Both the position numbers and the translations under genes were made by a program. From an uncultured Gammaproteobacteria bacterium (GTDB lineage: Bacteria > Patescibacteriota > Microgenomatia > Daviesbacterales > UBA10151), in contig CAZGFG010000001.1 of assembly GCA_964524895.1 (NCBI GenBank), positions 54,936 to 118,935 of the forward strand: a stretch of 64,000 bases of DNA. The letters run 5' to 3'. Shown piece by piece: positions 19,845 through 38,839 of this stretch (the stretch's first letter is position 1; each line of letters begins with the position of its first letter). Below the pieces are notes generated by a model that saw only the letters and a program-made list of their open reading frames with translations, did no database searches and was not told the origin of the DNA.

Positions 19845-20624
19845 ATGAAAACCATTATTCTTTGTGGTGGAATCGGATATAGACTTAAAGAAGAAACTGA
19901 ATTTAAACCTAAGCCAATGGTCCTAATAGGAAATAAGCCCATCCTTTGGCATATAATGAAAATCTATTCTCACTACGGTTACAACGAATTCATCATAGCT
20001 TTAGGTTATAAGGGTGAATATATAAAAGATTATTTTTTAAATCAAAAATATTTCTTGGATAATTTCACGCTTTACACTAAGAGTGGATATACAAAACTGC
20101 ATAAGAATAAGCGGGATAATACCAGAGATGATTTTAAGATTACTTTTGTAGATACAGGACAAGATACCTTACCTGGAGAAAGAATATTGAGAGTGAGGAA
20201 CTTTATACCCGAAAATGATGAGAACTTCATGGTTACTTATGGGGATGGAGTATCTGACATTAATATAAATGAATTGGTTAAATATCACAAAAAACACGGT
20301 AACATCGGAACTATAGCTGGAGTTCATCCTAGAAGCAAATATGGACTTTTAAAAATTGATAGGGCATGTATTGTACAAAAGTTTGTTGAAAAACCAGTAT
20401 TAACCGAGTGGACAAGCGGAGGATTTATGGTCTTTAAAAGAGAGTTTTTTTCTTATCTCCGCAAAGGTGAATTTGAACATTTAGCCTTAAAAAGATTGAT
20501 CAGGAAAAAACAACTTTCTGTATATGTTCATAACGGTTTTTGGCACTCAATGGATACATATCCCGATGTTGACAACTTAAATAGGCTCTGGTTGGAGAAT
20601 CCTAGGTGGAAAGTTTGGAAATAA
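19845..20624 (+). CDS. rfbF: Glucose-1-phosphate cytidylyltransferase (CDP-glucose pyrophosphorylase).
   Basis: MKTIILCGGIGYRLKEETEFKPKPMV.IGNKPILWHIMKIYSHYGYNEFIIALGYKG closely matches the RfbF/DdhA N-terminal consensus (GGxGTRL...KPKPMV.IGG.PILWHIMK.Y). 259 aa. Confidence 0.85.
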   Translation: MKTIILCGGIGYRLKEETEFKPKPMVLIGNKPILWHIMKIYSHYGYNEFIIALGYKGEYIKDYFLNQKYFLDNFTLYTKSGYTKLHKNKRDNTRDDFKITFVDTGQDTLPGERILRVRNFIPENDENFMVTYGDGVSDININELVKYHKKHGNIGTIAGVHPRSKYGLLKIDRACIVQKFVEKPVLTEWTSGGFMVFKREFFSYLRKGEFEHLALKRLIRKKQLSVYVHNGFWHSMDTYPDVDNLNRLWLENPRWKVWK

Positions 20625-21587
20625 ATGAACTTAAACGGGGTTAATGTACTTGTAACTGGTGGTTGTGGTTTCATCGGCGGTCACCTTGTAGAAGAGTTAA
20701 TTGAAAAAGGCGCCAAGGTAACGGTCGTTGATATTAACTTAAATCCACAGTCTACTTTTGCCCTAAACAAGTTAGAAAATAAATCTGAATTAAAGTTTCT
20801 TGATATCCGTGATAGGATTAATGTCTTGCGTCTTTTCAAGCAAGTTCAACCTTCTTATGTCTTCCATTTAGCAGCACAACCTTTAGTAGAGGAAGCTTAT
20901 CTTAGCCCTTTTGTAAATTTTGAAACCAATATTATGGGAACCGTTAATGTTTTGGATGGAGTAAGTTTTGCCAGGAGTGTTAAGGGAATAATTGTTGCTT
21001 CATCAGATAAAGCATACGGTAAGAGTAAAAAAGCATACCAAGAAGATTTTCCTTTAAAGGGAGATCATCCCTATGATGTATCCAAATCTTCACAAGATTT
21101 GATTGCTCAAAGCTATTTTAGAACCTACGATTTACCAGTAGTAATTACCAGGTTTGGAAATGTTTATGGACAAGGAGATTTTCATTTCAGCCGAATAATT
21201 CCCGGAATCTGTGAAGCAATTATTAAGAATAAGCCCCTTTTGGTAAGAAGTAATGGGAGATATATCAGAGATTACATTTATGTTAAAGATGTTGTTAACG
21301 GATATATATTCTTACTGAAGAATATTGATAGATTAAAGGGCAACGCTTTTAATTTTTCTTCTAAAGACGGCTTGTCAGTTATTAATCTTATCAAGCTAGT
21401 TGAAAAGATATTAAGAGTAAAAATACCTTATAAGATCCTAAATACTGCTCAAAACGAGATTCCTTATCAACATTTAGACGATAGAAAAATAAGAAGAATT
21501 CGTTGGAAACCAAATTATACAATCGAAAACACATTCCCTAAAGTACTTGCTTGGTATAACGAAAACGGTATTTTCCGATTAACCTAA
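20625..21587 (+). CDS. NAD-dependent sugar-nucleotide 4,6-dehydratase, probably CDP-glucose 4,6-dehydratase (RfbG/DdhB-like).
   Basis: VLVTGGCGFIGGHL Rossmann motif and catalytic SSDKAYGKS (S/T-D-K-x-Y). It is directly downstream of rfbF with a 0 nt gap. Confidence 0.6.
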   Translation: MNLNGVNVLVTGGCGFIGGHLVEELIEKGAKVTVVDINLNPQSTFALNKLENKSELKFLDIRDRINVLRLFKQVQPSYVFHLAAQPLVEEAYLSPFVNFETNIMGTVNVLDGVSFARSVKGIIVASSDKAYGKSKKAYQEDFPLKGDHPYDVSKSSQDLIAQSYFRTYDLPVVITRFGNVYGQGDFHFSRIIPGICEAIIKNKPLLVRSNGRYIRDYIYVKDVVNGYIFLLKNIDRLKGNAFNFSSKDGLSVINLIKLVEKILRVKIPYKILNTAQNEIPYQHLDDRKIRRIRWKPNYTIENTFPKVLAWYNENGIFRLT

Positions 21588-22819: not shown

Positions 22820-22893
22820 ACTCCTAGAAATAAATCTTACATAATTCTAATCCCTACTCCTTAGCCTGTCAATATTATATACTATCGCAGCTT

Positions 22894-23979
22894 ATGAGTA
22901 TCAACAAAATTAATATTAATTCCAGTAGAAAAATCTACCGTGTCGAATTTAAAAATGACATCTATAGTACTCTTAATAGACTGACAAAAAAGTATGTTAC
23001 CCATTTTTTAATAGACAAAAACGTATATAATACACATCGGTCAATCCTGGATCATTCTACAACATCTGCCCATTCTACTTACATTTTTGAACCCTTGGAG
23101 AAGAAAAAAAACCTCAATGAAGTTTATAAATTTATTGATTTTCTACTTACAAACAAAATTCAAAAAGATCATAAGATAATTGTTGTAGGTGGCGCATTAG
23201 TCCAAGATATTGGCTCCTTTACATCGCACATTATACTTAGAGGCATAGATTGGATTTTTATTCCAACAACTCTATTAGCAATGGCTGATAGCTGTATAGG
23301 TTCAAAATCAGGAATTAATGTAAAGAGGCTTAAAAATCAAGTTGGATCTTTTCATCACCCCATTGATATATACATCTGCTTACCTTTTCTCAAAACTTTA
23401 CCTCAAAGTGAATTAGCTAATGGAATTGGGGAAATAATAAAGCATTTTTTTATCAAAGGAGAACCATTTTTTTCTGATATAGGAGATGAGCTGGATAAAA
23501 TGGGTAAAGATATACAAGTCACCCGAGAAATTATTTACAAAAGTCTACTGATAAAAAAAGATATTATAGAAAAAGACGAATATGAAGAAAAAGGAATTAG
23601 AAAGCTATTGAATTACGGACATACCTTTGGGCATGCCCTTGAAGGATATTCGAAAAATAGAATCTCTCACGGAGTAGCTGTCTTGAATGGAATGGATATG
23701 GCAAATTTTATCTCTTTCAAAAGAGGTCTCTTGCCGAGAAATGAATTTTTAAGATTTCATAAATTCGTAAAAAAATATATTCCTTACAAACAAATTCCGA
23801 TTAAAGATGTTAATCTGTATCTTGAATTTTTATCAAAAGATAAAAAAGCAGTTGGATCTAGTATATATGCGATATTGTGTAAAGGACTTGGAAATATCAT
23901 GATTGCTAAAATAGATCTGGATAAAAAGATTGTCAGAGATATAACAGAATACCGCGAATTCTACAGTCAAGGGAAATAA
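22894..23979 (+). CDS. 3-dehydroquinate synthase-like sugar-phosphate cyclase (DHQS superfamily).
   Basis: GGALVQDIGSF...IPTTLLAMADSCIGSKSGIN...GSFHHP, LKTLPQSELANGIGEIIKH, LLNYGHTFGHALE and HGVAVLNGM match the DHQS metal- and NAD-site blocks. 361 aa. Confidence 0.75.
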   Translation: MSINKININSSRKIYRVEFKNDIYSTLNRLTKKYVTHFLIDKNVYNTHRSILDHSTTSAHSTYIFEPLEKKKNLNEVYKFIDFLLTNKIQKDHKIIVVGGALVQDIGSFTSHIILRGIDWIFIPTTLLAMADSCIGSKSGINVKRLKNQVGSFHHPIDIYICLPFLKTLPQSELANGIGEIIKHFFIKGEPFFSDIGDELDKMGKDIQVTREIIYKSLLIKKDIIEKDEYEEKGIRKLLNYGHTFGHALEGYSKNRISHGVAVLNGMDMANFISFKRGLLPRNEFLRFHKFVKKYIPYKQIPIKDVNLYLEFLSKDKKAVGSSIYAILCKGLGNIMIAKIDLDKKIVRDITEYREFYSQGK

Positions 23980-23988
23980 GCAAAATAA

Positions 23989-25419
23989 ATGAGTTGTTTT
24001 ATCGGGATAGATTTAGGGGCAAGTTTTATCAAAGGCGCCCTCTTTGATATTGATAAATTAGAGATTTCCAATATTATTAAATTCTCTTCTCCTCAACCAA
24101 AGATTTACTCAAAAGAACCACCATTTTTAAGATTTGAAACTAACCCAAGTTCTTACGAAAAAATAGTTAAGCTTCTGATTAATAGATATTTGAAACAGGC
24201 TGATGATATTAGGGGGATTGTTTTCTCAACCCAAATGCACGGAATGGTGCTTATAGATTCAAAGTTAGCCCCAATAACTACATTCATTGGATGGCAAGAT
24301 GAAAGATTGCTGGAAAAATCTCCTATTAAGTCTAAAACCTGGGCCGACTTATTAAATTCTCGGATCAAAGGTATTGATTCTTCATCAACTGGAATAAAAT
24401 TAAAATCAGGACTTATGGGAAGTACGCTCTTTTGGCTAAAAGAAAACCAGGCATTAAAAAAATACAAGAATGTCAAAGCTTTGTTTTTAGGCGATTATAT
24501 AGCTGCGAGATTATCAAAAGGGGAAGCTTTTGTTGATGCCACTAATGCATGTGGCTCTGGCATCTTCGATGTTGAAAACGGCAAATGGCATATGGGTCTT
24601 CTTAAAAAAATAGGTATTGATACCTCGTATTTACCCACCATTGTCCCTACTGGTAGCATAATAGGGTACATGAAAATACTCAACAGAAAGATTCCAGTTT
24701 ATGCGTCAGTTGGTGATTTACAATCAGCTGTTTTAGGGAGCTTTGCGGGAATTACTAACAAAGAAGATATTTGCATTAATATTGGAACTGGGTCTCAGGT
24801 TTCATATGTATCTAAAAAATTTGATAATGGAAACTATGATATCAGATCCTATTTTGATAATACATACCTTTATACAATCACCAACATCCCAGCCGGCAGA
24901 GCACTTAATGTACTCGTAAAATTTATAGAAGAAATTGGGCATGAAATATTTGGTACCAAAAAACAGGTAGATCTTTGGGCGAAAATAGGTCAATTATTAG
25001 AAAATAAAAATAGACATAGCCAGTTAAAAGCTGATCTTGCATTTTTCAAGAATAACTTCACTGGACTAACAACTGGTAGTTTTACAAATATAACAGAAGA
25101 TAATTGGACTCTGGTAAATATGTTTGTATCAGCTTTTGAGTGTATGGCTGCAAACTATAAAATTGCCTATGATCGACTGCGAAAAAATAATCTTAAGGGC
25201 AGAATAATTTTTTCTGGCGGTCTTGCGAGGAAGTTCCCACTGTTAAGAATTATAACAAAAGAAAAGCTCAAAAAAGGATCGCGTCTGGCACCTTATGATG
25301 AAGAAGCACTTACGGGTCTTTTTATTATTTCTCTTTTTATCGCCAAAAAAACTAGGAACATCAAGGAAGCTACTTTACATTGTAAAAATCACAATATCAC
25401 ATATAAGAAGCCTGCATGA
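23989..25419 (+). CDS. FGGY-family carbohydrate kinase (ASKHA fold).
   Basis: N-terminal IGIDLGASFIKGALFD phosphate-1 motif and IGWQDER (W.D.R FGGY signature). 476 aa. Confidence 0.7.
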   Translation: MSCFIGIDLGASFIKGALFDIDKLEISNIIKFSSPQPKIYSKEPPFLRFETNPSSYEKIVKLLINRYLKQADDIRGIVFSTQMHGMVLIDSKLAPITTFIGWQDERLLEKSPIKSKTWADLLNSRIKGIDSSSTGIKLKSGLMGSTLFWLKENQALKKYKNVKALFLGDYIAARLSKGEAFVDATNACGSGIFDVENGKWHMGLLKKIGIDTSYLPTIVPTGSIIGYMKILNRKIPVYASVGDLQSAVLGSFAGITNKEDICINIGTGSQVSYVSKKFDNGNYDIRSYFDNTYLYTITNIPAGRALNVLVKFIEEIGHEIFGTKKQVDLWAKIGQLLENKNRHSQLKADLAFFKNNFTGLTTGSFTNITEDNWTLVNMFVSAFECMAANYKIAYDRLRKNNLKGRIIFSGGLARKFPLLRIITKEKLKKGSRLAPYDEEALTGLFIISLFIAKKTRNIKEATLHCKNHNITYKKPA

Positions 25420-26075
25420 ACCGAAGAAAAAACCTAAACAATATTAATACTGTACTTTTTGATGTCGATGGAACCCTCTTAAATACAACTGAATTTATCT
25501 TTCAGTCATATGAAAATACCTTCAGGAAGTTCAATCTGCCTCGCATAAGCAGAGGAGAAATAGCCAATCTGATGGGGAAACCCCTTGAAGAGTGCTACAA
25601 ATACCTGGCACCATCTTTCCCGCTAAAGATCCTTTGCAAAACACACCTGACTTTTCAACTGGAAAATCTACAGTTAATAGCACCTTATGTGAATACTAAA
25701 TCTACTCTGCAAAATCTCAAAAAAAACCATATTAGAATCGGAGCTGTTACTACAAGATCAAACCTAACTTCAATAAAATCATTACAAATTACTGGAATTC
25801 ATAGTTTTTTTGATGTTGTAATCTCCGGAGATGATGTTAAGTACCATAAACCTCATTCTGAACCACTTCTCAAGGCTTTAGGAATCCTCAAGGCGGAAAA
25901 GGGAAAAGCTGTAATGGTAGGAGATACGGAGAGTGATATTTTGGCAGGGAAAAACGCAGGAGTACTCACAATAGGGGTAACATATGGCTTCCATAAAGAG
26001 AAAATAGTTGACGCAAATCCAGATTTTACCCTAAATGATGTTTCAGAGATTTTACAGTTGCTTAGCAGAACCTAG
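25416..26075 (+). CDS. HAD-superfamily phosphatase.
   Basis: Motif I LFDVDGTLL, motif III K..., motif IV MVGDTESD. 219 aa. ATGA overlap with the kinase. Confidence 0.8.
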   Translation: MNRRKNLNNINTVLFDVDGTLLNTTEFIFQSYENTFRKFNLPRISRGEIANLMGKPLEECYKYLAPSFPLKILCKTHLTFQLENLQLIAPYVNTKSTLQNLKKNHIRIGAVTTRSNLTSIKSLQITGIHSFFDVVISGDDVKYHKPHSEPLLKALGILKAEKGKAVMVGDTESDILAGKNAGVLTIGVTYGFHKEKIVDANPDFTLNDVSEILQLLSRT

Positions 26076-26130: not shown

Positions 26131-27960
26131 ATGGCGAATATGGTAAAAATTGGCGATTACTTAATGGATTTTCTATACCATCAAGGTTTAAGCGACCTTT
26201 TTGTTATCTCTGGAGGAGGTAACATTCATTTAATTGATTCCCTTGGAAGAAGTAAATTAAACTATATCTGTAATCACCACGAACAAGCTTGTGCTACAGC
26301 AGCTGAAGGATATTCTAGGGTTACGGGAAATTTTGGTGCTTGTCTCGTGACAACTGGCCCTGGCGGAACTAATGCCGTCACAGGAGTCTTGGGAGCTTGG
26401 CTTGACTCCATCCCTATGCTTGTTATTTCAGGACAAGTCAGGCGAAACCTCATCGAAACTGGAGCAAAATCTGGCGTCAGACAGATGGGAGTCCAGGAAA
26501 TAAATATCATAGATATCGTAAAAAATATAACAAAATACGCCGTTACTGTTATGGATCCACTAACAATTAGATATCACCTAGAAAAAGCTTTATATCTAGC
26601 AAAGCTGGGAAGACCAGGCCCTGTATGGTTAGATATTCCCTTGGATGTCCAGGGATCTTTGATTAAGGTAGGGAAACTTAGATCATTTAAGCCGTCAGAA
26701 ATCGTTCCACCTTTCGAAACAGAGGAAACGAAACTCAGAAAGCTAGTTTCTCAAGCTATCAACAAAATAGAACAATCAAGGCGTCCGGTACTCTATGTAG
26801 GTAACGGAATAAGACTTGCTCATGCAGAACAAGAATTATCAGAACTGGCAGATATTTTAAAAATCCCAATCTTCACCAGCTATGTAGGTTACGACCTTAT
26901 ACCGTCTTCTCATCCTTATTTTTTTGGCAGATCTCATTACTTAGGTCAAAGAGCGGCAAATTTTATTGTACAAAATAGTGATCTTTTTCTCTCGATTGGT
27001 GCACGACTTGATCTTCTTACGACTGGGTACACATATAAGGCTTTTGCCAGGCAGGCTTATAAAATAATGGTTGATATAGATAAAAACGAGATAGAAAAAC
27101 CAATTTTGGGTATTGATCTTCCTATAAACTACGATGCAAAAACATTTATTGAAGAGATGAAAAAACAGCTGAAGCAGGGTTTTAAAAGACCGGATATTTA
27201 TGAATGGTTAAGCTACGGGAAAAAGCTTATTAAGAAATACCCAAATATCTCTCCGAAATTTTGGCAAGAGAAAAAATATGTAAATCCATATTGTTTTATT
27301 GAAACGATAGGAAAGATGCTCCGACCAAATGAGATAATAGTTGTATCCGACGGAATGGGACCATTAAATTGCATGTATCAGGCATTTTATGTAAAAAAAG
27401 GGCAACGAATTATTTTAAATCTGGGCAGTGCACAAATGGGGTATGGATTACCTGCTGCAGTTGGGGCGTCTTTTGCCACGAGGAAGAAAAAAAGGATAAT
27501 CTGTTTTGAAGGTGATGGGAGCATCCAACTTAATATTCAAGAACTCCAAACAATAAAGCATCACAATTTACCAATTAAAATCTTTGTTTATAGTAACGAC
27601 GGCTATCAGTCAATTAGAAATACCCAGGATGGTCTTTTTGAAGGCAGATACTTTGCTTCCAATGCTGCAAGCGGAGTGAGTTGCCCCGATTTTCTAAAAG
27701 TAGGAAAAGCATATGGTATTAAAACCGTTAGAATTAACAATCATCAAGAAATGGAAGAAAAGATAAAATATGTACTTTCCTATGAAGGTCCCATGTTGTG
27801 TGACATAAATACTGTACGCAACCTACATTTAACCCCAAGGGTTCAAACGAAAAAAAGACCAGACGGAAGTTTATATTCCCCACCATTAGAAGAAATGTGG
27901 CCGCCTCTTTCTGATGAAGAACAAAAGGAAAATATGCTCATTCCTGATTGGGAGGAATAA
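26131..27960 (+). CDS. Thiamine-diphosphate enzyme of the acetolactate-synthase-like family, possibly a YerE-like sugar C-branching enzyme.
   Basis: N-terminal Pyr domain VTTGPGGTNAVTGVLGAWLDSIPMLVISGQV, a middle FAD-like domain, and C-terminal ThDP motif GDGS...SNDGY. 609 aa. Confidence 0.8.
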   Translation: MANMVKIGDYLMDFLYHQGLSDLFVISGGGNIHLIDSLGRSKLNYICNHHEQACATAAEGYSRVTGNFGACLVTTGPGGTNAVTGVLGAWLDSIPMLVISGQVRRNLIETGAKSGVRQMGVQEINIIDIVKNITKYAVTVMDPLTIRYHLEKALYLAKLGRPGPVWLDIPLDVQGSLIKVGKLRSFKPSEIVPPFETEETKLRKLVSQAINKIEQSRRPVLYVGNGIRLAHAEQELSELADILKIPIFTSYVGYDLIPSSHPYFFGRSHYLGQRAANFIVQNSDLFLSIGARLDLLTTGYTYKAFARQAYKIMVDIDKNEIEKPILGIDLPINYDAKTFIEEMKKQLKQGFKRPDIYEWLSYGKKLIKKYPNISPKFWQEKKYVNPYCFIETIGKMLRPNEIIVVSDGMGPLNCMYQAFYVKKGQRIILNLGSAQMGYGLPAAVGASFATRKKKRIICFEGDGSIQLNIQELQTIKHHNLPIKIFVYSNDGYQSIRNTQDGLFEGRYFASNAASGVSCPDFLKVGKAYGIKTVRINNHQEMEEKIKYVLSYEGPMLCDINTVRNLHLTPRVQTKKRPDGSLYSPPLEEMWPPLSDEEQKENMLIPDWEE

Positions 27961-28826
27961 TGAAGATACTTTTAACAGGATCCACCGGATATATAGGCAG
28001 AAACCTTACCGAAAATTTAAGCAATAAATACACCATCTTTTCACTTTCTCATAAACAGCTTGATTTGTTAAATTCTGAAGAAGTTGATAAATTTTTTAGA
28101 AAACAATGGTTCGATGTCGTAATTCATTGTGCAGTTACTGGAGGCAGTAGAATCGAAGAAGGTTTTGAAAATTCACTTTACCAAAATCTAAAAATTTTCT
28201 TTAATATCCTTAGAAATATCAACCATTTTGGGAGGATGATCAATTGTGGTTCGGGAGCAGAATACGATAAGAGTCGTTCTTTAAAAAAAGTTAAAGAAAA
28301 ACATTTTGACAAGAGGATACCGGAGGACGAGTATGGTTTTTTTAAGTATATATGCTCAAAATATATTGAGCGATCAAATAATATTACCAACCTGCGTGTC
28401 TTTGGTCTTTTTGGAAAATATGAGGATTACAGATACCGATTTATTTCTAATGCTATTTGTAGAAATATTTTTAATCTTCCGATTATCCTAAATAAAAATG
28501 TATATTTTGACTATCTATACATTGACGATTTTATTAATATAGTAGATTATTTTATTAACCATAAAGGCAAGTACACATCTTATAACGTGGGTCGTGGTAA
28601 ATCAATTAGTATTTTAAGTATTGCAAGGCAAATAAACCAAATAGCAAAAAGGAAATCTAAAATTATTATAAGAAATAAAGGACTAAATCATGAATATACG
28701 TGCAATAATTTAAGACTAATAAAAGAGTTGAGAAGATTTGAATTTACTAATTTTGACATAGCACTTCACAAGCTTTACACTTGGTACCAAGAAAATAAGG
28801 AGTTAATAAATATAAAATATCTATGA
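27948..28826 (+). CDS. NAD-dependent epimerase/reductase (short extended SDR, 292 aa), RfbS/RfbJ-size.
   Basis: ILLTGSTGYIGRNL Rossmann motif and a size typical of CDP-paratose/abequose synthases. It overlaps the upstream gene. Confidence 0.65.
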   Translation: MGGIMKILLTGSTGYIGRNLTENLSNKYTIFSLSHKQLDLLNSEEVDKFFRKQWFDVVIHCAVTGGSRIEEGFENSLYQNLKIFFNILRNINHFGRMINCGSGAEYDKSRSLKKVKEKHFDKRIPEDEYGFFKYICSKYIERSNNITNLRVFGLFGKYEDYRYRFISNAICRNIFNLPIILNKNVYFDYLYIDDFINIVDYFINHKGKYTSYNVGRGKSISILSIARQINQIAKRKSKIIIRNKGLNHEYTCNNLRLIKELRRFEFTNFDIALHKLYTWYQENKELINIKYL

Positions 28827-29485
28827 AAAAAACAGTTCTCCTTACCGGAGCTTCTCGAGGAATAGGCCAAGCTATAGCAGACCAATTAAAAAATAGATTT
28901 AAGCTTCTCTCTCCTGCCAGGGAAGAGCTTGATTTAAGTAATGATGCTTCAATAGAAAACTTTATAGAAAAAAATAAGGATTTAAAAGTAGATGTTATTA
29001 TAAATAATGCAGGGGTAAACTTTCCTCAATGGGTAGAAGAAATAACGGACAAAAATATCCGCGAAACATTCCAAGTAAATTTAATTGCACCTATAAAGCT
29101 CATCCAAGGTTTTGTTCATAATATGAAGCGAAATAAATGGGGAAGAATTGTCAATATTAGCTCTGCTTTTGGGGTAGTTGCAAGAGGTAAACAAGTGTTA
29201 TATGTTTCGACAAAACATGGAATTAACGGTGCGACAAAAGCTTTAGCTTTGGAGCTTGCTCCTTATAATATCCTTGTAAATTCTGTATGCCCTGGATTTA
29301 CCAGAACGGATTTAGTATTAAGAAACCCTTCAGAAAAAATTAAAGTTATTGAGCAAGATATTCCACTTGGCAGACTCGCTTATCCAAGCGAAATAGCCAA
29401 TCTTGTAGAATTTTTGATTTCCGATAAAAATACTTATATTACCGGTTCCTACATTGTTATAGATGGAGGGTTTACTTGTAAGTAA
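28823..29485 (+). CDS. Classical short-chain dehydrogenase/reductase (SDR).
   Basis: TGASRGIG cofactor motif, NNAG, and catalytic S...YVSTK (YxxxK). Confidence 0.8.
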   Translation: MKKTVLLTGASRGIGQAIADQLKNRFKLLSPAREELDLSNDASIENFIEKNKDLKVDVIINNAGVNFPQWVEEITDKNIRETFQVNLIAPIKLIQGFVHNMKRNKWGRIVNISSAFGVVARGKQVLYVSTKHGINGATKALALELAPYNILVNSVCPGFTRTDLVLRNPSEKIKVIEQDIPLGRLAYPSEIANLVEFLISDKNTYITGSYIVIDGGFTCK

Positions 29486-30452
29486 ACCTGCCGAATTAGG
29501 AATGATCATGAAAAGAAAAAAAGTATCAATCGGTGTTATTTGTTTTAACGAAGAGGATAATGTTATTCCTGCTCATAACGAGCTTGCGAGAGTTACCAAT
29601 AAAAATCAAAGATATACCTATGAATTTATTTTTGTTGATAATGGTAGTACAGATAATACTAGAAAACAGATTAAAAAAATCTCTGAAAAAGATCATAGAG
29701 TTGTCGGTGTTTTTTTATCACGTAACTTCGGTCCTGAATCTTCGGGACAAGCAGCCATAGATTTTGCCTCCGGAGATGCATTTGTTATGTACGAAGGAGA
29801 TTTGCAGGACCCTCCAGACGTTATCTTGGATTTCATCAAGCAGTGGGAGAAAGGCTTTGAAGCGGTAGTTGGTATTCGAGAAAAAATAGATGATATTCTT
29901 CCAATGACAATAACCAGAAAGCTATACTATAAGGTATTTAAGACAATTTCTAATATCGATATCCCTGTAAATGCCGGAAGTTTTTGTTTATTAGACAAAA
30001 AGGTAGTAGAGGCAATGAAAGAACTACCCGAGAAATACAGATTCTTCAGGGGTTTAAGAGCTTGGGTAGGATTTAAAACTTCCTATATCACTTACGAACG
30101 TAGAAGAAGACAAAAGGGAAAAAGCTCTTATAATTTTTTTAGATATTTACATCTTGCTGAACGAAGTTTCTTTGGCTTCTCTTATTTACCATTAGATATT
30201 ATTGTCTATTTTAGTCTTCTTTTAGTGTCTCTCTCAATCATCTGGTTAGCATTATTATTGTCCTCATTCCTTCTATTCGGGCAAACTATAAAGGAATCTA
30301 CGTTGATTTTGTTTTCAGTTATCCTCTTTGGTGGAATTCAACTGCTTGCTTCAAGCATAATCGGAAAATATATACAAGTTATAACGGAGGAAACAAAAGC
30401 ACGTCCTGTATACATAGTAGAAAGGGTCTTAAGGAATGAAAAAAATAGATGA
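29463..30452 (+). CDS. ArnC/GtrB-like GT2 polyprenyl-phosphate sugar transferase with two C-terminal TM helices. The true start is probably the internal ATG at 29502 or 29508 (MIMKRKK).
   Basis: VSIGVICFNEED...FVDNGSTDNT, YEGDLQDPPDVI (ArnC: DADLQNPPEEI), and the C-terminus GKYIQVITEETKARPVYIVERV (ArnC: [22 protein letters not shown]). Confidence 0.75.
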   Translation: MEGLLVSKPAELGMIMKRKKVSIGVICFNEEDNVIPAHNELARVTNKNQRYTYEFIFVDNGSTDNTRKQIKKISEKDHRVVGVFLSRNFGPESSGQAAIDFASGDAFVMYEGDLQDPPDVILDFIKQWEKGFEAVVGIREKIDDILPMTITRKLYYKVFKTISNIDIPVNAGSFCLLDKKVVEAMKELPEKYRFFRGLRAWVGFKTSYITYERRRRQKGKSSYNFFRYLHLAERSFFGFSYLPLDIIVYFSLLLVSLSIIWLALLLSSFLLFGQTIKESTLILFSVILFGGIQLLASSIIGKYIQVITEETKARPVYIVERVLRNEKNR

Positions 30453-31656
30453 TCTCCGGGTAACATACGCTCAAGCTGTTCACGATGAAGTAGAGGAAAA
30501 AAGAGTTTTAAGGGTTTTACGTGAACATAGAACAATCATGGGGAAAGAGGTTTCTGAATTTGAAAGAAGAGTAGCAAAGAAATTCGGCAAAAAATATGGG
30601 GTTATGGTAAATTCCGGTTCTTCTGCCCTTACTATTGCCATCGAGTTAATGAACTTACCAGCAGGTAGTGAAGTAATTACACCTCTTCTTACTTTCTCTA
30701 CTACAGTGGCTTCCCTTCTCAGAGACGGACTAGTCCCTGTTTTCACCGATGTTGATCTTAGAAAATACACAATCGATATTTCTCAAGTTGAAAACCTTAT
30801 TACTAAAGAAACCAAGGCTTTGATGATTCCACTTCTTTTAGGAAATGTTCCTGATATAGTAAAACTTTCTCTGATTGCAAAAAAATATAATTTATTCCTT
30901 ATAGAAGATTCTTGCGATACCCTGGGAGCAACTATAAATAGAAAACCAACCGGTCGATTTTCTGATATTAGTGTAACAAGTTTTTACGGATCACATATTA
31001 TTACTGCAGGAGGCGGAGGAGGAATGTTGATGACAGATAGAGCTGCCTTCTATGATAAAGCAAGGGTGCTTCGGGGTTGGGGAAGAAGCTCGTCCCGCCT
31101 GAATGAATCCGAAGATTTTAATAAGCGTTTTAGCCAAAAACTTGATGGTATCCTCTATGATGCCAAATTTATATTTGACACAATTGGCTATAATTTTATG
31201 CCTTTGGAAATAGGGGCAGCATTTGGAAATGCCCAACTTGATAAATTAAATATATTTAAGAAAATTAGAACACGCAATTTTGAACATCTATATAATTTTT
31301 TCAAAAATTACGAAAATTTTTTCATACTTCCTCTGCAAGAAACAAACATTAAAACTCAATGGCTAGCTTTTCCCTTGGTTATTAAAACCCAGGCTCCTTT
31401 TTCCAGATTTCACCTGGTTAAATATTTAGAGGAGAGAAATATTCAGACTCGTCCTATTTTTACAGGTAATATTCTAAAACACCCTGGTTTTCATTCTATA
31501 CCTCACAAGAGATCAAAAGAAGGCTACCATGTTACGGACGAAATCATGAAGCAAGGATTTGTCATAGGTTGCCATCACGGCCTAACTCTAAAGCACTTAC
31601 AAAAAATTAAAGATGTCTTCAATAACTTCTTAAACAAGTATAATAGCTGGCGGTAA
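30436..31656 (+). CDS. DegT/DnrJ/EryC1-family PLP/PMP enzyme with the catalytic lysine replaced by histidine; predicted sugar-nucleotide 3-dehydrase (E1/ColD type) rather than an aminotransferase.
   Basis: Family blocks are present (VMVNSGSSAL, IEDSCDTLGA). At the Schiff-base position the sequence is TSFYGSHIITAGGGGG, i.e. H where aminotransferases have K (SFH..K....GEGG). This matches the SFY..HHIT.GEGG pattern I recall for E1/ColD. Confidence 0.7.
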   Translation: MKKIDDLRVTYAQAVHDEVEEKRVLRVLREHRTIMGKEVSEFERRVAKKFGKKYGVMVNSGSSALTIAIELMNLPAGSEVITPLLTFSTTVASLLRDGLVPVFTDVDLRKYTIDISQVENLITKETKALMIPLLLGNVPDIVKLSLIAKKYNLFLIEDSCDTLGATINRKPTGRFSDISVTSFYGSHIITAGGGGGMLMTDRAAFYDKARVLRGWGRSSSRLNESEDFNKRFSQKLDGILYDAKFIFDTIGYNFMPLEIGAAFGNAQLDKLNIFKKIRTRNFEHLYNFFKNYENFFILPLQETNIKTQWLAFPLVIKTQAPFSRFHLVKYLEERNIQTRPIFTGNILKHPGFHSIPHKRSKEGYHVTDEIMKQGFVIGCHHGLTLKHLQKIKDVFNNFLNKYNSWR

Positions 31657-31670
31657 ACTATCTCTATGGA

Positions 31671-33590
31671 TTAGTTACTAAATACTAATCTTTTTTTGAC
31701 TTCATCTGTGATATTTATTACTTTAGGTCCTTCAACTGCAAATGCATATAAATTCTCTAAACTAATAAATTTTCCATCTAAAGAATAGCCTTCACCATTA
31801 CGGATGCACCTCATTTCTTTATTCCCCTCATTCCTATATAGAAACTCCTTTGATCCATTCTGGACAGTAGCCATCTTTTGTAGTTCTAAAAAATCCCATG
31901 TTAAGGCAATACATGCATTAGTAGTATTGTTTGTTATATAACTCATTTCTATAGGCAACCAATATGTTAAGTTTCTCCAATCAAAAATATCCTCCCACTG
32001 ATTGGGAGCTTCTACTTCTTCTGTTTTAAACTTTATATAAATCAATAAATTACCATTCATTTTATCTTTTGAAATATAACTTAATGTTTGAGCCTTCATG
32101 GATTCTTGAATTTGTAACTCCCTACCGGAACTCTTTTTTCCATAAAAAAGCTGAGCGATTTCCGCTTGACTGATACTAAAAATCTGAAATATAACCACTA
32201 GTATTAGAAGTAATGCTAACAGTCTATTTATTCGCTTATTTCTTTGGTAAAGTAAAGTCAATATACTTGCTATAAAAAGATAGGAACCTATGGTTGAAAT
32301 AACAAAATACCTGTGTATACCTTCTTGATACATATAGTAATCCCTTGTAAAAAACCACTGCCCCAGGATAAACAGTAACGCGAAAAAGGGAGACAGAAGT
32401 GCAAAAAGTAGGAGAGTATTTTTCTTACCAGTTAAATACCATTCAATTCCGCAACTTATTGAAATAGAGATAATAAAGGCTGCTAAAATCCCAGAGTATA
32501 ATCCAGCATTAAAGGATGGCCCTGCATACCCAATGACAAGATGTTCAGGTATTCCAAAATGATGAGTATATAAAACAAAAATAATAACATCAAATATTAA
32601 ATTTATTAACATTGATATAGAAAAAAATCTGAATGGTTTATTAGATATAATAAAAGATAAAATAAGAGAAACTGCCCCAAAGATAATAAATGGTTTATAA
32701 ATTAAAGAGGAGATATAAGCAGACAGATTGGATATATTGATTGGTACAAGGATATTAAGAGATGCAGCCGGTAAAAATGTATAGCCTAGTCCCCATAATG
32801 GATTTAAAAGGAAGTACCAATTTCCGTTGGTAATTTTTTTAATAAAATCAGGCCAGCCTGCAGGACTATATGCATCTCCTCCAACATTTCCTAAACTATT
32901 CAAAGTAATAGTAATAATTGGCAAAAAGATCGCACTTAATCTTAAAACTGAAACAATAAAATTACACTTCTTATCTTTGATCAGAATAAATAACTCAACA
33001 AATAAAATAATTATAAATATAGGAAAGATGCGAATAGGAGATGCTAAATACCCAAACGTAACAATTAAAGATAGAAGCGATACGGTAATGATGGTTGGTT
33101 TTTTTACACAATAGTAATATACAATTAGAAACAGGAGCATTAATGCTACTCCCAAATATTCATTACCTACTACATAAAGGTATAGCGCTCCAGTAGATGG
33201 ATAGCTGAGGCCATATAGAAAAGTTCCCAAAAAGGAAAATAGCCTATTCTTAGTTAGAAGCAGAATGAGAGGATAGAGCAGCAAAGTGGCAACTATTTTA
33301 AAGAAAATGTTTGTATAAAGATACATTGTATAGTTTTTCCCATACAAACTATCTAAAAAACCTAAATAGAAGTCGTGTGTTGCGTTATGAATACCTACCT
33401 TTTTCCATGTACCTATGGGATCTGAGAACATTTGGTCTTTGCTAAATCTGATCTGATAAAAACCACCATAATCCTCATTGGTTAATCCTTGACCTACAAT
33501 TGGTTTCAATAAAATAAATTGGAAAAAAATAATTATTAGAACTAAAGCAGGAAATATAATAGGTCCTGAAAATATCTTAGTTAGCTGCAT
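31671..33590 (-). CDS. GT-C-like polytopic membrane glycosyltransferase paralogue (639 aa).
   Basis: Multi-TM protein with the family-conserved C-terminal tail (LYAFAVEGPKVINITDEVKKRL). It is first of three tandem paralogues. Confidence 0.6.
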   Translation of the reverse strand: MQLTKIFSGPIIFPALVLIIIFFQFILLKPIVGQGLTNEDYGGFYQIRFSKDQMFSDPIGTWKKVGIHNATHDFYLGFLDSLYGKNYTMYLYTNIFFKIVATLLLYPLILLLTKNRLFSFLGTFLYGLSYPSTGALYLYVVGNEYLGVALMLLFLIVYYYCVKKPTIITVSLLSLIVTFGYLASPIRIFPIFIIILFVELFILIKDKKCNFIVSVLRLSAIFLPIITITLNSLGNVGGDAYSPAGWPDFIKKITNGNWYFLLNPLWGLGYTFLPAASLNILVPINISNLSAYISSLIYKPFIIFGAVSLILSFIISNKPFRFFSISMLINLIFDVIIFVLYTHHFGIPEHLVIGYAGPSFNAGLYSGILAAFIISISISCGIEWYLTGKKNTLLLFALLSPFFALLFILGQWFFTRDYYMYQEGIHRYFVISTIGSYLFIASILTLLYQRNKRINRLLALLLILVVIFQIFSISQAEIAQLFYGKKSSGRELQIQESMKAQTLSYISKDKMNGNLLIYIKFKTEEVEAPNQWEDIFDWRNLTYWLPIEMSYITNNTTNACIALTWDFLELQKMATVQNGSKEFLYRNEGNKEMRCIRNGEGYSLDGKFISLENLYAFAVEGPKVINITDEVKKRLVFSN

Positions 33591-33616
33591 AGTTTTGTAA
33601 TAGTATATCCTATTTT

Positions 33617-35494
33617 TTACTGATTCAAAAGGTTAGCTTGATTAGAATATAGTTCTTGTAATATCTCTTTGGTATTTGGGACTAAGTTTCGACCCTTAAA
33701 TCTAAAGGCGTGAAAGTTTTCTTTCTTAAAAACATTTTCTCCACATTTAGTACTGACTATGGTTTCTCCATCTCCTAAGATAGCAACAAACCTTTCTAAT
33801 TCTTCTTTGCCTAAAATTTCAATATTACACAGCTGAAATCGTTTTTCTTTGGGGATATTCTCCTTTAAGTCAAACCAACTGGCTAACCTCCATATAATTA
33901 CTTGCTCATAATAAGCACCATTTTCGTTCTCCTCTGCCTGCCCAAAATAGATAAGTGGTAGGTTCTCTTTATTGTAATTTCTTGAAGTATTTATCTCTCT
34001 CCAGAATTGATTCCATACTCTTTGTTGATCTGTAGCTCTTAATCCGTGAAACAGCCAGTATGAAAAATATTCATCGATAGTACTGGAACTGATTTTAAAA
34101 TAAAATCCTATGAAAATAGCTACTAAAAGAAGGGGGATGGTTAAATTTACATCTATGTCTAATTTGATTCTTTCGAAAATAAGCACCAAAAGTATAGCGA
34201 TAACTATACTGGTTCCTATTGAGGGGATATTTAAATATGCATGCACACCCATAAAAATAGAGTTGAAGTCTGCAAAAACCCAGGTTAAAAAAATAAATAT
34301 AAACGATGAAGTTATGGCGATAAACGCTAGCGGCAAAAGATTGTTCTTTACGTTAGATTCTTTCCATTCCCAAAGGAATACTAGATTTAGAGAAACCATC
34401 ATAAGTCCAATTAATGCAGGGGTCATAAAAACTCCCGGGTCTACAGGAGCTCTGGTCATTTTGTCTAGATAAAGCCAGTTGTGAGCCAATAAATACGCAG
34501 CAAGACCTAGAATTATATTTAGTCCAAAACAGCGTATAAAAAACTTGAATGGTTTTTTGGAGATTAGTGCAGCTAAAAAACCATCGAATAAACTATATAA
34601 AAATAGTGGTCCTAAGAGAAAGTAAGAAAAAAAGGAGTAGAAGTCTTCGTAATTTGGTACTCCAAAAATTATCCAGAACTCCCTTGGTATATAGGTGCTT
34701 CCTAAGGACGCAAAAGGAGATAAGAAAAGTTGATAGTTTCCCTTACTCAGTATATCAAGTAAGGCAATTGGATATAGTAAAGACACAATTATCGATCTAG
34801 GTGAAAAAAGAAATAACAACAATAAAGGAGAATACAATATTAGTAACCTGGTGGTCGAAATTTTAAATTGATTTTTAAATTCGTTTCGAAACAAATTAAC
34901 CAGTTCAATTAAGGGAAGAATAATCATTAACGGAAAAAGCCGGGTAGGATCTATAACAATCGTTACCAACATCCATATCGAAAGGATAAGTATGGTTGTT
35001 AATCTGGATATATTCTTTTTAACTACATATATATATGTAGTTAAAAACAAATTCATTGATGCAATAGCTATAAAGTCTTCTCCTCTGGAAGCGTTATCTA
35101 GACTTCCAAAGGGAGAATAGTGGATAGAGAAAAACAATGTTGATAGAAATGCCAATAATCTACTCTTGGAAATGGTAAGGACTAAGGGATATAGGCTAAT
35201 AGATGCAATAATTTTTAAAAATTGATTAGTTACGGAATATAAAGAATAATTTAAGCCGAAAAAGTTATATAAGACCCCTATATAATAGGAATGAGGAAAC
35301 CAATGCGGCCCTAATTCTTTCCATGCAGAAAAAAAATCAAGAATAGGATTTTGAATATATGCTCGATATGCTGAGAGAAATAACCAATCATCAGTAAAAA
35401 AACCAAACTCTAAATGCTTTAATCCGAGGAGAAATTGTGTTATTGATGCAATAAAAGCAAGAATGCAAATAACCCTGAAGTCTTTTTTATTCAT
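33617..35494 (-). CDS. GT-C-like polytopic membrane glycosyltransferase paralogue (625 aa).
   Basis: FFTDDWLF motif after TM1, KSRLLAFL, NIPSIG and a C-terminal FHAFRFKGRNL tail. Confidence 0.6.
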   Translation of the reverse strand: MNKKDFRVICILAFIASITQFLLGLKHLEFGFFTDDWLFLSAYRAYIQNPILDFFSAWKELGPHWFPHSYYIGVLYNFFGLNYSLYSVTNQFLKIIASISLYPLVLTISKSRLLAFLSTLFFSIHYSPFGSLDNASRGEDFIAIASMNLFLTTYIYVVKKNISRLTTILILSIWMLVTIVIDPTRLFPLMIILPLIELVNLFRNEFKNQFKISTTRLLILYSPLLLLFLFSPRSIIVSLLYPIALLDILSKGNYQLFLSPFASLGSTYIPREFWIIFGVPNYEDFYSFFSYFLLGPLFLYSLFDGFLAALISKKPFKFFIRCFGLNIILGLAAYLLAHNWLYLDKMTRAPVDPGVFMTPALIGLMMVSLNLVFLWEWKESNVKNNLLPLAFIAITSSFIFIFLTWVFADFNSIFMGVHAYLNIPSIGTSIVIAILLVLIFERIKLDIDVNLTIPLLLVAIFIGFYFKISSSTIDEYFSYWLFHGLRATDQQRVWNQFWREINTSRNYNKENLPLIYFGQAEENENGAYYEQVIIWRLASWFDLKENIPKEKRFQLCNIEILGKEELERFVAILGDGETIVSTKCGENVFKKENFHAFRFKGRNLVPNTKEILQELYSNQANLLNQ

Positions 35495-35560
35495 TTCTCT
35501 TAATACTGGTTTTTAAGGAAAGGTAAAAACCAAGATTTGTAAGGTTTTATCATATAAGTA

Positions 35561-37438
35561 TTACTCATCTGCTTCAAGCTCTCTCAAAATTCGATCTTTA
35601 ATGTCTATTGGCTCTTTGTTTTTTAATCTAAAAGCATAAAAATCCTTTAAAGAATAGAAATGTGGCTTATAACAATAATCATAGAGGTAAAATCCTTTCT
35701 CCCCCTTTTTTGTCATGAATATCTCTTTTAACTGTTCCGGACGATTAATTATAAAAACAGGAAGACTACAGCTTCCTGGCTTATAGCTACCTTTAAAAAA
35801 CATCCAGTCAGAAAATCTGCCAAGGGTACTCATTTCATAGAACCTTCCGTTGAGATAGTCATCACTTGTATCAAAATAAAATAAGGTGGGGGTTGAGTTA
35901 TCAAAGCCTCCTAGTTTACTCCACACTCTGTCTCTCATCATCTCATGCTCCTTAGCGTCCATGCTATAACTGGTGATATCCCAGTTAGATTGAATTATTC
36001 TCTTATCCATATTGTAAATAGGTATCAGTAAAAGAAAGGTTAACAAAGCAATATTCTTACCTAAAACCCCAAAAACACTGATCTTTTTATACAGCAGTAC
36101 TAGAGTTCCTGCTATAAAGATGCTGCTTCCAATTGAGGGGATATTTAGATACGTATGAACTCCTTTAAACAAGACAGACCAATCCTTGAACATCCATGTA
36201 AAAAATATGAAATTACTAGAAAATAAACATCCTACCCATAAGGCTTGGTATAAATGATTATTTTTTCCAGAATCGTTCCATTCTCGCCAGATAAAGAAAG
36301 ATAACGACAGAATATAAATTGCTATGAAAACCGGGTAAAGTTCTATGTAGTCATAATGAACTTGAAGAGTTGATTGAAGTGTTTCTTGATGTTTAACTAA
36401 AACAAAAGCTATTAATTGGAAAAATATATTCGTTGACAAAATTCCGAAAAAGAAATTATATAGTCTTTTTTTAGGAACTGATAGAATAAAAACATAGAAA
36501 AGGGTTACTATTCCAAATATTGGTAAAGTATTGGTAAGCAGGTAACCGATATAATCAAAAATATTTTTAAGTTGAGGTGTGCCAAAAAATTTCCCATAGT
36601 CAGTTAAGAGAAAGATACTGCCCAATGACCCTAAAGGATAAAGTAATAATTGCCAGTTTCCTCTTAATATTTTATCGATGATCGCTGGAGCATTCAAGGT
36701 AAAACTAATTACTGATGAGGGAGAGACAAGAGTCAACACTAGATAAGGGAAAAAAAGAATCGTTAGTTTTTTAGATGTTTCCCAGGACACCTCTTTTGAT
36801 CTCCTTATAATAACTAAGTAGATCTCAATAAATAAAATGAAGGCTAGGAGGGGATATATTCTAATAGGGGAGAAGAGCATACTCATTAACAAAAGGATCA
36901 TTTGAAAAAAAAGCCACTTTCCCCCCCTTATTACTCCAATATGAAACAAGTAATAGGTAATTAAAAAGATACACATAAAAATTACAGCAATAAAATCACT
37001 CCCCCTTACAACCAACTCCAATGTCCCCACAGGAGAATAAGCCATTGCATATAAAACAACGGTAATAAAGGCTAGCAGCCGATTTTTAAAAACAATTAGC
37101 ACTAAAGGATAAACCATTAAAGCAGCCAGTCCCTTGAGGATCTGATTTATAACTTGGTACATTTGAAAATTAAAACCTAAGAACTGATGCAAAAAACTTA
37201 TGTATAGCGTCTGATAGGTGGTATATATACCCTGCTCCTTCCAAACTAATAAAAGCCCCATAAGTTTAAAGTGAGCAAGCGGCCACCAATCATCAGGAGT
37301 AAAACCATAGTTAAGTTGGGGTCTTAAAAGAACATATTGTAAGCCTGTTACTATAATTGTTAATAGGAAAAAAACCAATAAGTTCTTCTTATTCTTGATA
37401 AGAAAGTTTTTCAATGACTTAGTGGGAATATTGGTCAT
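35561..37438 (-). CDS. GT-C-like polytopic membrane glycosyltransferase paralogue (625 aa).
   Basis: FTPDDWWPL motif, KNRLLAFI, NIPSIG and a C-terminal FYAFRLKNKEPIDIKDRILRELE tail. Confidence 0.6.
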   Translation of the reverse strand: MTNIPTKSLKNFLIKNKKNLLVFFLLTIIVTGLQYVLLRPQLNYGFTPDDWWPLAHFKLMGLLLVWKEQGIYTTYQTLYISFLHQFLGFNFQMYQVINQILKGLAALMVYPLVLIVFKNRLLAFITVVLYAMAYSPVGTLELVVRGSDFIAVIFMCIFLITYYLFHIGVIRGGKWLFFQMILLLMSMLFSPIRIYPLLAFILFIEIYLVIIRRSKEVSWETSKKLTILFFPYLVLTLVSPSSVISFTLNAPAIIDKILRGNWQLLLYPLGSLGSIFLLTDYGKFFGTPQLKNIFDYIGYLLTNTLPIFGIVTLFYVFILSVPKKRLYNFFFGILSTNIFFQLIAFVLVKHQETLQSTLQVHYDYIELYPVFIAIYILSLSFFIWREWNDSGKNNHLYQALWVGCLFSSNFIFFTWMFKDWSVLFKGVHTYLNIPSIGSSIFIAGTLVLLYKKISVFGVLGKNIALLTFLLLIPIYNMDKRIIQSNWDITSYSMDAKEHEMMRDRVWSKLGGFDNSTPTLFYFDTSDDYLNGRFYEMSTLGRFSDWMFFKGSYKPGSCSLPVFIINRPEQLKEIFMTKKGEKGFYLYDYCYKPHFYSLKDFYAFRLKNKEPIDIKDRILRELEADE

Positions 37439-38836: not shown

Positions 38837-38839
38837 GCT

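Follow-up and report, generated by a model that had tools for sequence, protein, structure and literature searches.

The window analyzed here is a stretch of 64,000 nucleotides (nt) from an uncultured bacterium with the GTDB lineage Patescibacteriota, Microgenomatia, Daviesbacterales, UBA10151 (GenBank assembly GCA_964524895.1, contig CAZGFG010000001.1, positions 54,936 to 118,935 of the forward strand). It is a glycan-biosynthesis island of about 33% GC, in which we found no tRNA genes. Near its middle lies an open reading frame (ORF), here called the target gene, that encodes a sugar-modifying enzyme of the DegT family. The protein has histidine at the position of the lysine that forms the Schiff base in sugar aminotransferases, as do the 3-dehydratases E1 and ColD, and it lacks the cysteines that hold the iron-sulfur cluster of E1. 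We predict that it is a 3-dehydratase dependent on pyridoxamine 5'-phosphate (PMP) that acts on a nucleoside diphosphate (NDP)-linked sugar. The gene and the features within it on which the argument depends are as follows.

30436..31656, forward strand: target gene, predicted PMP-dependent NDP-4-keto-6-deoxyhexose 3-dehydratase (ORF, Pfam, PDB matches, AlphaFold2 model).
30907..30909, forward strand: codon of Asp158, in IEDSCD, invariant and aligned with E1 Asp191 and ColD Asp159 (alignment).
30976..31023, forward strand: motif TSFYGSHIITAGGGGG (residues 181-196), with Ser182, the Ser186-His187 pair, and a glycine run with a one-residue insertion instead of GEGG (translation, MAFFT).
30994..30996, forward strand: codon CAT of His187, predicted catalytic acid/base replacing the Schiff-base lysine (alignments).
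31078..31131, forward strand: loop WGRSSSRLNESEDFNKRF (residues 215-232), which replaces the E1 iron-sulfur loop WGRDCYCAPGCDNTCKKRF (translation, phmmer, MAFFT).

The target ORF has an ATG start and a stop-free translation of 406 amino acids (aa), and its start overlaps the 3' end of the upstream gene, a family 2 glycosyltransferase (GT2), by 17 nt. The Pfam family DegT_DnrJ_EryC1 (PF01041) covers residues 17-393 at 2.1e-75 (254.7 bits against a cut-off of 19.8), and the top NCBIfam model is the RfbH equivalog NF011936, at 318.3 bits and thus under its curated cut-off of 423. A phmmer search of the PDB placed E1 first (3bcx; 2.7e-68, 234 bits, 33% identity) and ColD second (2gms, 3b8x; 6e-51, 177 bits, about 30% identity), followed by aminotransferases. 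The nearest solved relative is thus E1 of Yersinia and Salmonella (AscC/DdhC/RfbH), the 3-dehydrase of cytidine diphosphate (CDP)-6-deoxy-L-threo-D-glycero-4-hexulose; ColD is the 3-dehydratase of guanosine diphosphate (GDP)-4-keto-6-deoxy-D-mannose. An AlphaFold2 model built from a 39-sequence alignment of members of the target's clade (pLDDT 95.2, pTM 0.92) gave the same order when compared with the PDB by Foldseek, with E1 on top (TM 0.89-0.90, 33% identity) and ColD second (0.85-0.87). Lysine-type DegT/DnrJ/EryC1 aminotransferases, such as ArnB, PseC, perosamine synthase, and WecE, have the same fold (TM 0.80-0.85) and belong to the same Pfam family. In a MAFFT alignment, Asp158, Asp161, and Ser182 of the target align with Asp159, Glu162, and Ser183 of ColD and are invariant in relatives. 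By their places in the fold we take these three to be cofactor-binding residues, Asp158 being presumably the ligand of the cofactor's pyridine nitrogen; the roles that we give to single residues draw on a review, PDB titles, and general background on the fold. Some close relatives carry the JGI label "CDP-6-deoxy-D-xylo-4-hexulose-3-dehydrase," and NCBI labels them as generic aminotransferases. We regard the target as very probably a DegT-family NDP-sugar 3-dehydratase.

A reading of this DNA from its letters alone, below called the sequence-only reading, had placed a histidine at the position of the catalytic lysine, and three independent alignments agree with it. By phmmer, the target segment SFYGSHIIT pairs with SFYPAHHIT of E1 and with SFYPAKHIT of the E1 H220K mutant, so that His187 is the counterpart of E1 His220. 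MAFFT alignment of the target with E1 and ColD puts His187, E1 His220, and ColD His188 in one column. In an hmmalign alignment of about 100 DegT ORFs from fetched loci, including about 80 lysine-type proteins, the aminotransferase lysine (in FSFYPNKQITTGEGG, FSFFGNKIITTGEGG, and similar motifs) falls in the His187 column, where lysine-type enzymes carry their Schiff base and from which the target differs. The pairwise phmmer alignment of the target with ColD is off by one residue here, because the SFY match is favored; the three-way MAFFT alignment resolves the shift and agrees with the ungapped register of the lysine-type enzymes. The SF(H/Y)xxK motif of sugar aminotransferases is therefore missing from the target. 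Nor could a differently gapped alignment restore the lysine, the case that the sequence-only reading had named as decisive against itself, since there is no lysine between K170 and K208. The histidine also proved to be conserved in orthologs, a check that the same reading had proposed: it is present in 121/121 sequences (the target and 120 relatives at 62-91% identity) and is one of 17 invariant columns among 39 diverse clade members, with identity down to 32%. Judged by these sequences, His187 is not a chance or error state. It is barely credible that the protein is an inactive relic, a pseudo-enzyme left after loss of the catalytic lysine: the missing lysine, and nothing more, speaks for this, whereas His187 and the 16 other invariant residues persist across that range, the cofactor ligands are kept, and the intact ORF overlaps its operon partner and has thousands of homologs.

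By itself, the change from lysine to histidine is what textbooks give as the mark of an enzyme type already known, and databases label some relatives in this way, so the finding as first written is ordinary. The proposal that came with it, a PMP-dependent dehydratase of the E1/ColD type, is supported by the best matches in sequence and in fold, the conserved aspartates and serine, and the gene neighborhood. Its statement that E1 and ColD are the two known cases was too narrow: SpnQ is named beside them in a 2022 review of the characterized 3-dehydratases, and the C3-dehydratases of the Campylobacter jejuni HS:5 and HS:11 serotypes make a fourth case. The more informative feature, the absence of E1's iron-sulfur cysteines, had been missed.

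The textbook route to deoxygenation of a CDP-sugar at C-3 is a radical enzyme that contains PMP and a [2Fe-2S] cluster (E1) and works with a dedicated reductase (E3). In the numbering of 3bcx, E1 has Cys193 plus the loop WGRD-C251-Y-C253-APG-C257-DNT-C261-KKRF. Agnihotri et al. reportedly assigned the cluster in 2004 to a C-X57-C-X1-C-X7-C motif (Cys193, 251, 253, and 261), and this numbering agrees with that of 3bcx. The target lacks the four-cysteine motif. It keeps only the equivalent of Cys193 (Cys160), and Cys251, Cys253, and Cys261 correspond to Ser219, Arg221, and Phe228, so that three of the four [2Fe-2S] ligand positions are replaced; Ser225 also stands at one of the E1 loop's four cysteine positions. 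Cys160 and Cys379 are the only cysteines in the protein. The conserved cysteine-free loop reads WGRSSS..ESE..KRF in the target and WGR(S/N/T)S(S/A)..(E/D)(S/T)E...(K/E)RF in the relatives, and it is cysteine-free in all 120 of these, which have 2-5 cysteines overall. Ser219, at the position of E1 Cys251, is found in 121/121 sequences. Where E1 has IYP there is a GCH motif, with Cys379 in 120/121 sequences and His380 in 121/121, and Cys160 is alanine in many clade members. E1 and SpnQ hold their [2Fe-2S] cluster through four cysteines and ColD has none (2022 review). We consider it highly likely that the target works without an iron-sulfur cluster. With Cys251, Cys253, and Cys261 missing, the E1/E3 route of electron transfer cannot be used by the target as it is in E1.

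Could the protein nevertheless be a canonical E1-type enzyme, with an iron-sulfur or other redox center on noncanonical ligands or at the dimer interface, served by a cellular ferredoxin/flavodoxin reductase as SpnQ is? Its sequence is nearer to E1 than to ColD, its loop is as long as that of E1 and not shortened as in ColD, close relatives keep Cys379-His380 and Cys160, and loci with E1-type enzymes also lack a dedicated E3, which makes a general reductase realistic. Against these points stand the serine, arginine, and phenylalanine at three of four ligand positions, a supply of two cysteines per chain of which Cys160 is dispensed with in many clade members, and a loop cysteine in 0/120 relatives; we hold this explanation to be very unlikely. 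No E3-like domain (Fer2, FAD_binding_6, NAD_binding_1) was found in window ORFs of at least 120 aa or in three orthologous loci (L083-L085), and the control loci with cysteine-containing E1-type enzymes (L004-L009) lack an adjacent E3 too; the only neighbors of the E1-type gene there encode short-chain dehydrogenases/reductases (SDRs), a methyltransferase, and a GT2. We therefore dropped absence of E3 (AscD/DdhD) as a test for E1-type chemistry. A regular-expression search for plant-type ferredoxin motifs gave no match anywhere.

Compared with the characterized enzymes, the target combines features of several. It is like E1 in the histidine at the lysine position, in loop length, and in a CDP-glucose pathway context, which is found in the window and beside orthologs; unlike E1, it has no GEGG glutamate, carries a one-residue insertion, and belongs to a separate clade. 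With ColD it shares a serine before the histidine (Ser187-His188 in ColD, Ser186-His187 in the target) and the absence of iron-sulfur ligands. ColD differs in keeping the glutamate (MEGG), in its shortened loop, and in its clade; its substrates are GDP-linked and its pathway context is Gmd/ColC, whereas the nucleotidyltransferase of the window is of the cytidylyl type and no Gmd/ColC pair lies next to the target. The target thus has neither the clade membership of ColD nor its GDP-mannose context. SpnQ, the thymidine diphosphate (TDP)-4-keto-2,6-dideoxyglucose 3-dehydratase of the spinosyn forosamine pathway, is PMP-dependent and has no dedicated E3 partner gene; unlike the target, it has the four-cysteine [2Fe-2S] motif and uses general ferredoxin/flavodoxin reductases. 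Its substrate context is that of deoxythymidine diphosphate (dTDP)-2,6-dideoxy sugars in actinomycete secondary metabolism, a pathway whose partners are a 2,3-dehydratase and a 3-ketoreductase; the target lacks the motif, and we found no Nudix-type 2,3-dehydratase among the Pfam matches in the window. ColD and the C. jejuni HS:5/HS:11 C3-dehydratases have the histidine at the lysine position, are cluster-free, and turn over with pyridoxal 5'-phosphate (PLP) and L-glutamate alone, which is our model for the turnover of the target.

The sequence-only reading had also called the glycine run, GGGGG instead of GEGG, unusual. The run is real, but it occurs in lysine-type relatives as well and is not peculiar to the histidine enzymes. 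The most economical alignment sets T-M-G-(gap)-E-G-G-A of E1 against T-A-G-G-G-G-G-M of the target, which implies a one-residue insertion plus replacement of the glutamate. Gly193, Gly195, and Gly196 are invariant in the 121 sequences; position 194, the best counterpart of the GEGG glutamate, is glycine in 69, asparagine in 51, and serine in 1, and across the clade the equivalent position is G, N, S, T, A, or L, so an acidic residue is dispensable in the target's clade. Some lysine-type aminotransferases have glycine or alanine for the glutamate while sharing the cofactor-binding aspartate and serine, and relatives with K..TTGGGGM or K..TTGAGGM exist (L021, L044, L052, L025, and others). Given this variation and this sharing, we rejected the run as a mechanistic signature. 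From the distribution of sequences, it is a clade marker that travels with the loss of the cysteine loop.

To place the target among its homologs, we searched 1.84 billion cluster representatives (50% identity) exhaustively with HMMER; this returned 1,077 proteins at E <= 1e-30, and the best 150 of these were classified by three columns (the histidine position, the GEGG glutamate, and the number of loop cysteines). Target-like sequences with histidine, glycine, and no loop cysteine ("HG0") made up 63 of the best 150; 45 were E1-like (histidine, glutamate, three or more cysteines), 23 were ColD-like (histidine, glutamate, no cysteine; HE0), and 19 fell in other categories. In a neighbor-joining tree, the target-like sequences form essentially one clade beside the E1 type, and ColD and its relatives lie elsewhere with the HE0 sequences; the tree is a quick one from BLOSUM distances without support values, and its branching order is provisional. 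Close relatives come from Patescibacteria, for example Candidatus Levybacteria, and a clade member with 51% identity to the target occurs in Candidatus Pelagibacter sp. HIMB1695 (L003). The latter was the one new clade member from a locus scan with poorly conserved peptides of the single protein, which otherwise returned mostly lysine-type aminotransferases and served only as an alignment control. Some clade members are fused to 4,6-dehydratase-like SDR, RmlC-like epimerase, or RmlD-like reductase domains, and one protein (P0150) unites RmlC-like, RmlD-like, and DegT domains; these fusion partners are the set needed to convert an NDP-4-keto-6-deoxyhexose to a 3,6-dideoxyhexose. On present sequences, the target belongs to a large sister clade of E1, uncharacterized biochemically and structurally, in which the cluster was lost or never present. 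A literature search found no description of the clade; subscription journals were mostly outside its coverage, which makes this weak evidence of novelty.

The genes around the target that bear on its substrate are the following.

19845..20624, forward strand: glucose-1-phosphate cytidylyltransferase (RfbF-like), which would make CDP-glucose (TIGR02623, PDB 1tzf).
20625..21587, forward strand: CDP-sugar SDR, probably CDP-glucose 4,6-dehydratase, with SSDKAY and YDVSK motifs (TIGR02622, PDB).
26131..27960, forward strand: YerE/JanthE-like enzyme dependent on thiamine diphosphate (ThDP), predicted to use the 4-keto-3,6-dideoxy product for acyl branching at C-4 (PDB 8rph).
27948..28826, forward strand: 292-aa extended SDR (Epimerase/RmlD-like), candidate YerF-like or 4-keto reductase (Pfam).
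28823..29485, forward strand: 220-aa classical SDR (Pfam adh_short_C2), kept in orthologous loci L001 and L083.
29463..30452, forward strand: GT2 glycosyltransferase of the PgfS/ArnC type (polyprenyl-phosphate sugar transferase-like) (NCBIfam).
31671..33590, reverse strand: first of three tandem paralogous polytopic membrane proteins, convergent with the target (no Pfam match).

The cytidylyltransferase matches TIGR02623 over its full length at 264 bits (cut-off 300; next family 80 bits) and PDB 1tzf at 188 bits (next match 63 bits). For the SDR that follows it, the top NCBIfam model is TIGR02622, CDP-glucose 4,6-dehydratase (189 bits, under the cut-off of 278), and the PDB matches are CDP-tyvelose 2-epimerase at 136 bits and CDP-glucose 4,6-dehydratase at 127 bits. 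The ThDP enzyme scores 420 bits against 8rph and about 248 against acetolactate synthases; the enzyme in 8rph, JanthE, has been described as YerE-like. The acceptor to which YerE couples pyruvate is CDP-4-keto-3,6-dideoxy-D-glucose, the product of E1, and YerF reduces the branch to give yersiniose A; erwiniose and caryophyllose, with longer branches, are made by a YerE/YerF-like scheme. The GT2 matches NF047588 PgfS at 219 bits and ArnC at 116 bits, each under its cut-off.

Much of this set recurs beside orthologs. Two orthologous loci (L083, from Ca. Levybacteria, and L085) encode the cytidylyltransferase, the dehydratase, a ThDP enzyme of 608-609 aa, and an SDR of 285-292 aa, at 56-71% identity to the proteins of the window; in a third (L084), the cytidylyltransferase is accompanied by a dehydratase-like SDR, an RmlC-like protein, and a reductase, and there is no ThDP enzyme. 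The module is partly kept in L001 and L084, and a counterpart of the 292-aa SDR also stands beside the ThDP enzyme in L001, L083, and L085. Together, these neighbors point to CDP-4-keto-3,6-dideoxyglucose as the intermediate, destined for an acyl-branched, yersiniose-like sugar. What lifts the finding above the ordinary is a cluster-free sister clade of E1 in a conserved yersiniose-like pathway of candidate-phyla-radiation bacteria. Two Rickettsiales loci (L004 and L009) combine the cytidylyltransferase, the dehydratase, and the ThDP enzyme with a cysteine-containing E1-type enzyme, each forming a yersiniose-like cluster; one step of the pathway therefore seems to be served by either enzyme type, which suggests that the cysteine-free and E1-type enzymes are functionally equivalent. 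The ThDP enzymes in these loci (L004:114-7123, L009:6072-12180) have 591-598 aa and are 30-33% identical to that of the window, with no E3 reductase gene adjacent.

That the target is a 3-dehydratase for another nucleotide sugar, a dTDP-, GDP-, or uridine diphosphate (UDP)-4-keto-6-deoxyhexose, and that its link to the CDP and YerE-like genes is coincidental, seems unlikely to us. The glycan island is large and holds several more SDR, 4,6-dehydratase-like, and RmlD-like genes, the CDP genes lie 9 kb off, the ThDP enzyme is missing from L084, and the fusions to RmlC/RmlD-like domains in the clade are typical of dTDP pathways. A cytidylyltransferase-like gene, however, stands beside the ortholog in L083, L084, L085, and L003, YerE-type enzymes use a CDP-linked 4-keto-3,6-dideoxy sugar, and in the window we identified no partner gene of the Gmd/ColC or the RmlA type adjoining the target.

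A protein that is no dehydratase at all, such as a histidine-containing aminotransferase or another PLP/PMP enzyme yielding a 4-amino or isomerized sugar, is distinctly unlikely, even though SpnQ transaminates with PLP and glutamate when its reductase is absent. All characterized members with the lysine-to-histidine change are 3-dehydratases, the downstream YerE-like enzyme needs a 4-keto acceptor, and in L085 a separate lysine-type DegT aminotransferase adjoins the ortholog, which suggests a division of labor.

The best overall explanation, to which we assign a probability of roughly 60%, is that the target is a cluster-free PMP-dependent 3-dehydratase that acts on a CDP-sugar, with ColD-like turnover, in a yersiniose-like pathway. 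The analysis shows the family, the histidine in the lysine column, the kept cofactor ligands, the missing cysteine motif, the clade structure, and the gene context; from these we infer its substrate, the dehydration chemistry, the ColD-type turnover, and the amino donor. The most likely substrate would be CDP-4-keto-6-deoxy-D-glucose, which would come from two enzymes encoded 9-10 kb upstream, the cytidylyltransferase and the 4,6-dehydratase. In the proposed reaction, PMP is joined as a ketimine to the sugar at C-4, after which His187 takes the C-4' proton and aids loss of the 3-hydroxyl, giving a delta-3,4-glucoseen-PMP adduct. Because there are no [2Fe-2S] ligands, this adduct is most likely resolved as in ColD: hydrolysis would release PLP and an enamine, which would tautomerize and shed ammonia to leave CDP-4-keto-3,6-dideoxyglucose. 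An amino acid such as L-glutamate would restore PMP by transamination, and no reductase would take part. The YerE-like ThDP enzyme and the SDR reductases could then convert the product to a C-4 acyl-branched 3,6-dideoxyhexose, yersiniose-like, for transfer to a surface glycan by the overlapping GT2 and the membrane transferases.

Several points weigh against this explanation. Both the hydrolytic resolution and the choice of amino donor are purely inferred. The target is nearer in sequence to E1 than to ColD, so ColD-like chemistry would have to be convergent or ancestral and not inherited from ColD. The matches to the cytidylyltransferase, 4,6-dehydratase, RfbH, and PgfS models are all under the NCBIfam curated cut-offs, the SDR at 20625..21587 matches CDP-tyvelose 2-epimerase as well as a dehydratase, and about 9 kb with other genes separates the CDP-glucose genes from the target. 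Taken by itself, ColD-type turnover on a CDP-sugar is in our estimate a somewhat better than even proposition. A bolder interpretation, which we rate as rather doubtful, is that the clade represents a third mechanistic class among the PMP-dependent 3-dehydratases, either descended from E1 or ancestral to it, that deoxygenates CDP-4-keto-6-deoxyglucose without cluster or reductase. Its resolution of the glucoseen or its regeneration of PMP might differ from those of both E1 and ColD, and Ser219 and Cys379-His380 could be involved in such a mechanism.

A large natural clade of cluster-free E1-like enzymes would show that the CDP-linked product can be obtained without redox chemistry, and it would bear on whether gain or loss of the cluster accompanied the evolution of dehydratases from aminotransferases. 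Were the third class real, organisms with minimal redox equipment, such as Patescibacteria and Pelagibacter, would have a way to 3,6-dideoxy and acyl-branched sugars. The finding also indicates that branched deoxysugars like yersiniose are probably displayed on the surface of candidate-phyla-radiation bacteria; a literature search linking Patescibacteria with yersiniose, 3-dehydratases, or rfbH found nothing relevant in the papers covered. There is also a practical side. E1/E3 is hard to reconstitute in vitro, and one group that obtained no combined activity abandoned the enzymatic route to CDP-3,6-dideoxy sugars (PMC7851689). A cluster-free enzyme that is insensitive to oxygen would be of use as a biocatalyst for CDP-4-keto-3,6-dideoxyglucose, the acceptor for carboligases of the YerE type.

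Two other observations concern the enzyme family. In a 669-aa clade member outside the window (P0125), an intein (Hint_2 / Intein_splicing) interrupts the sequence after about residue 163, at the conserved IEDSCD cofactor-binding strand. A further histidine-type subgroup (L010-L013, L032, L078) has the motif AHIISTVEGG and a longer, cysteine-rich loop, ACKC....C..NT..GYCKKRF; its hosts are Omnitrophota, Ratteibacteria, Pirellulales, and Nitrospirae, its genes often lie beside one for a protein of ~490 aa with a CxxxCxxC motif, and it may be another iron-sulfur variant of the family.

Between the CDP-glucose genes and the YerE-like enzyme (21590-26075) are four genes, for a NeuB-like synthase (reverse strand), an FGGY sugar kinase, a haloacid dehalogenase (HAD)-type phosphatase, and a cyclase related to AroB (TIGR04425-like, at 352 bits and so under the cut-off of 400); in the corresponding parts of the orthologous loci (L083:1006-4413, L085:2584-7464), their place is taken by genes for an HpcH/HpaI aldolase, a TAL_FSA aldolase, and PEPcase_2. 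By analogy with ErwI/ErwJ in the erwiniose pathway, these intervening genes could provide the ThDP enzyme with an unusual 2-oxo-acid donor, in which case the acyl branch would be longer than that of yersiniose. The three membrane paralogs downstream of the target (31671-37438, reverse strand) have 625-639 aa and 27-31% mutual identity, and also stand beside the ortholog in L001 and L002. A Pfam search gave no match for any of the three; they may be divergent transferases like those of the glycosyltransferase C (GT-C) type for a lipid-linked sugar, because other orthologous loci have PMT_2 genes nearby. Next to them, the genes for an MBOAT acyltransferase and an AlgX-like SGNH domain protein are paired (37445-40249, reverse strand), which suggests O-acylation of a surface polysaccharide. 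Farther on (47682-49487 and 53312-55051 on the reverse strand, 57410-59130 on the forward strand), two NodU/CmcH-type carbamoyltransferases and a split transketolase, with separate genes for the N-terminal and the pyrimidine/C-terminal parts, hint at carbamoylated sugars and a further C2-transfer step.

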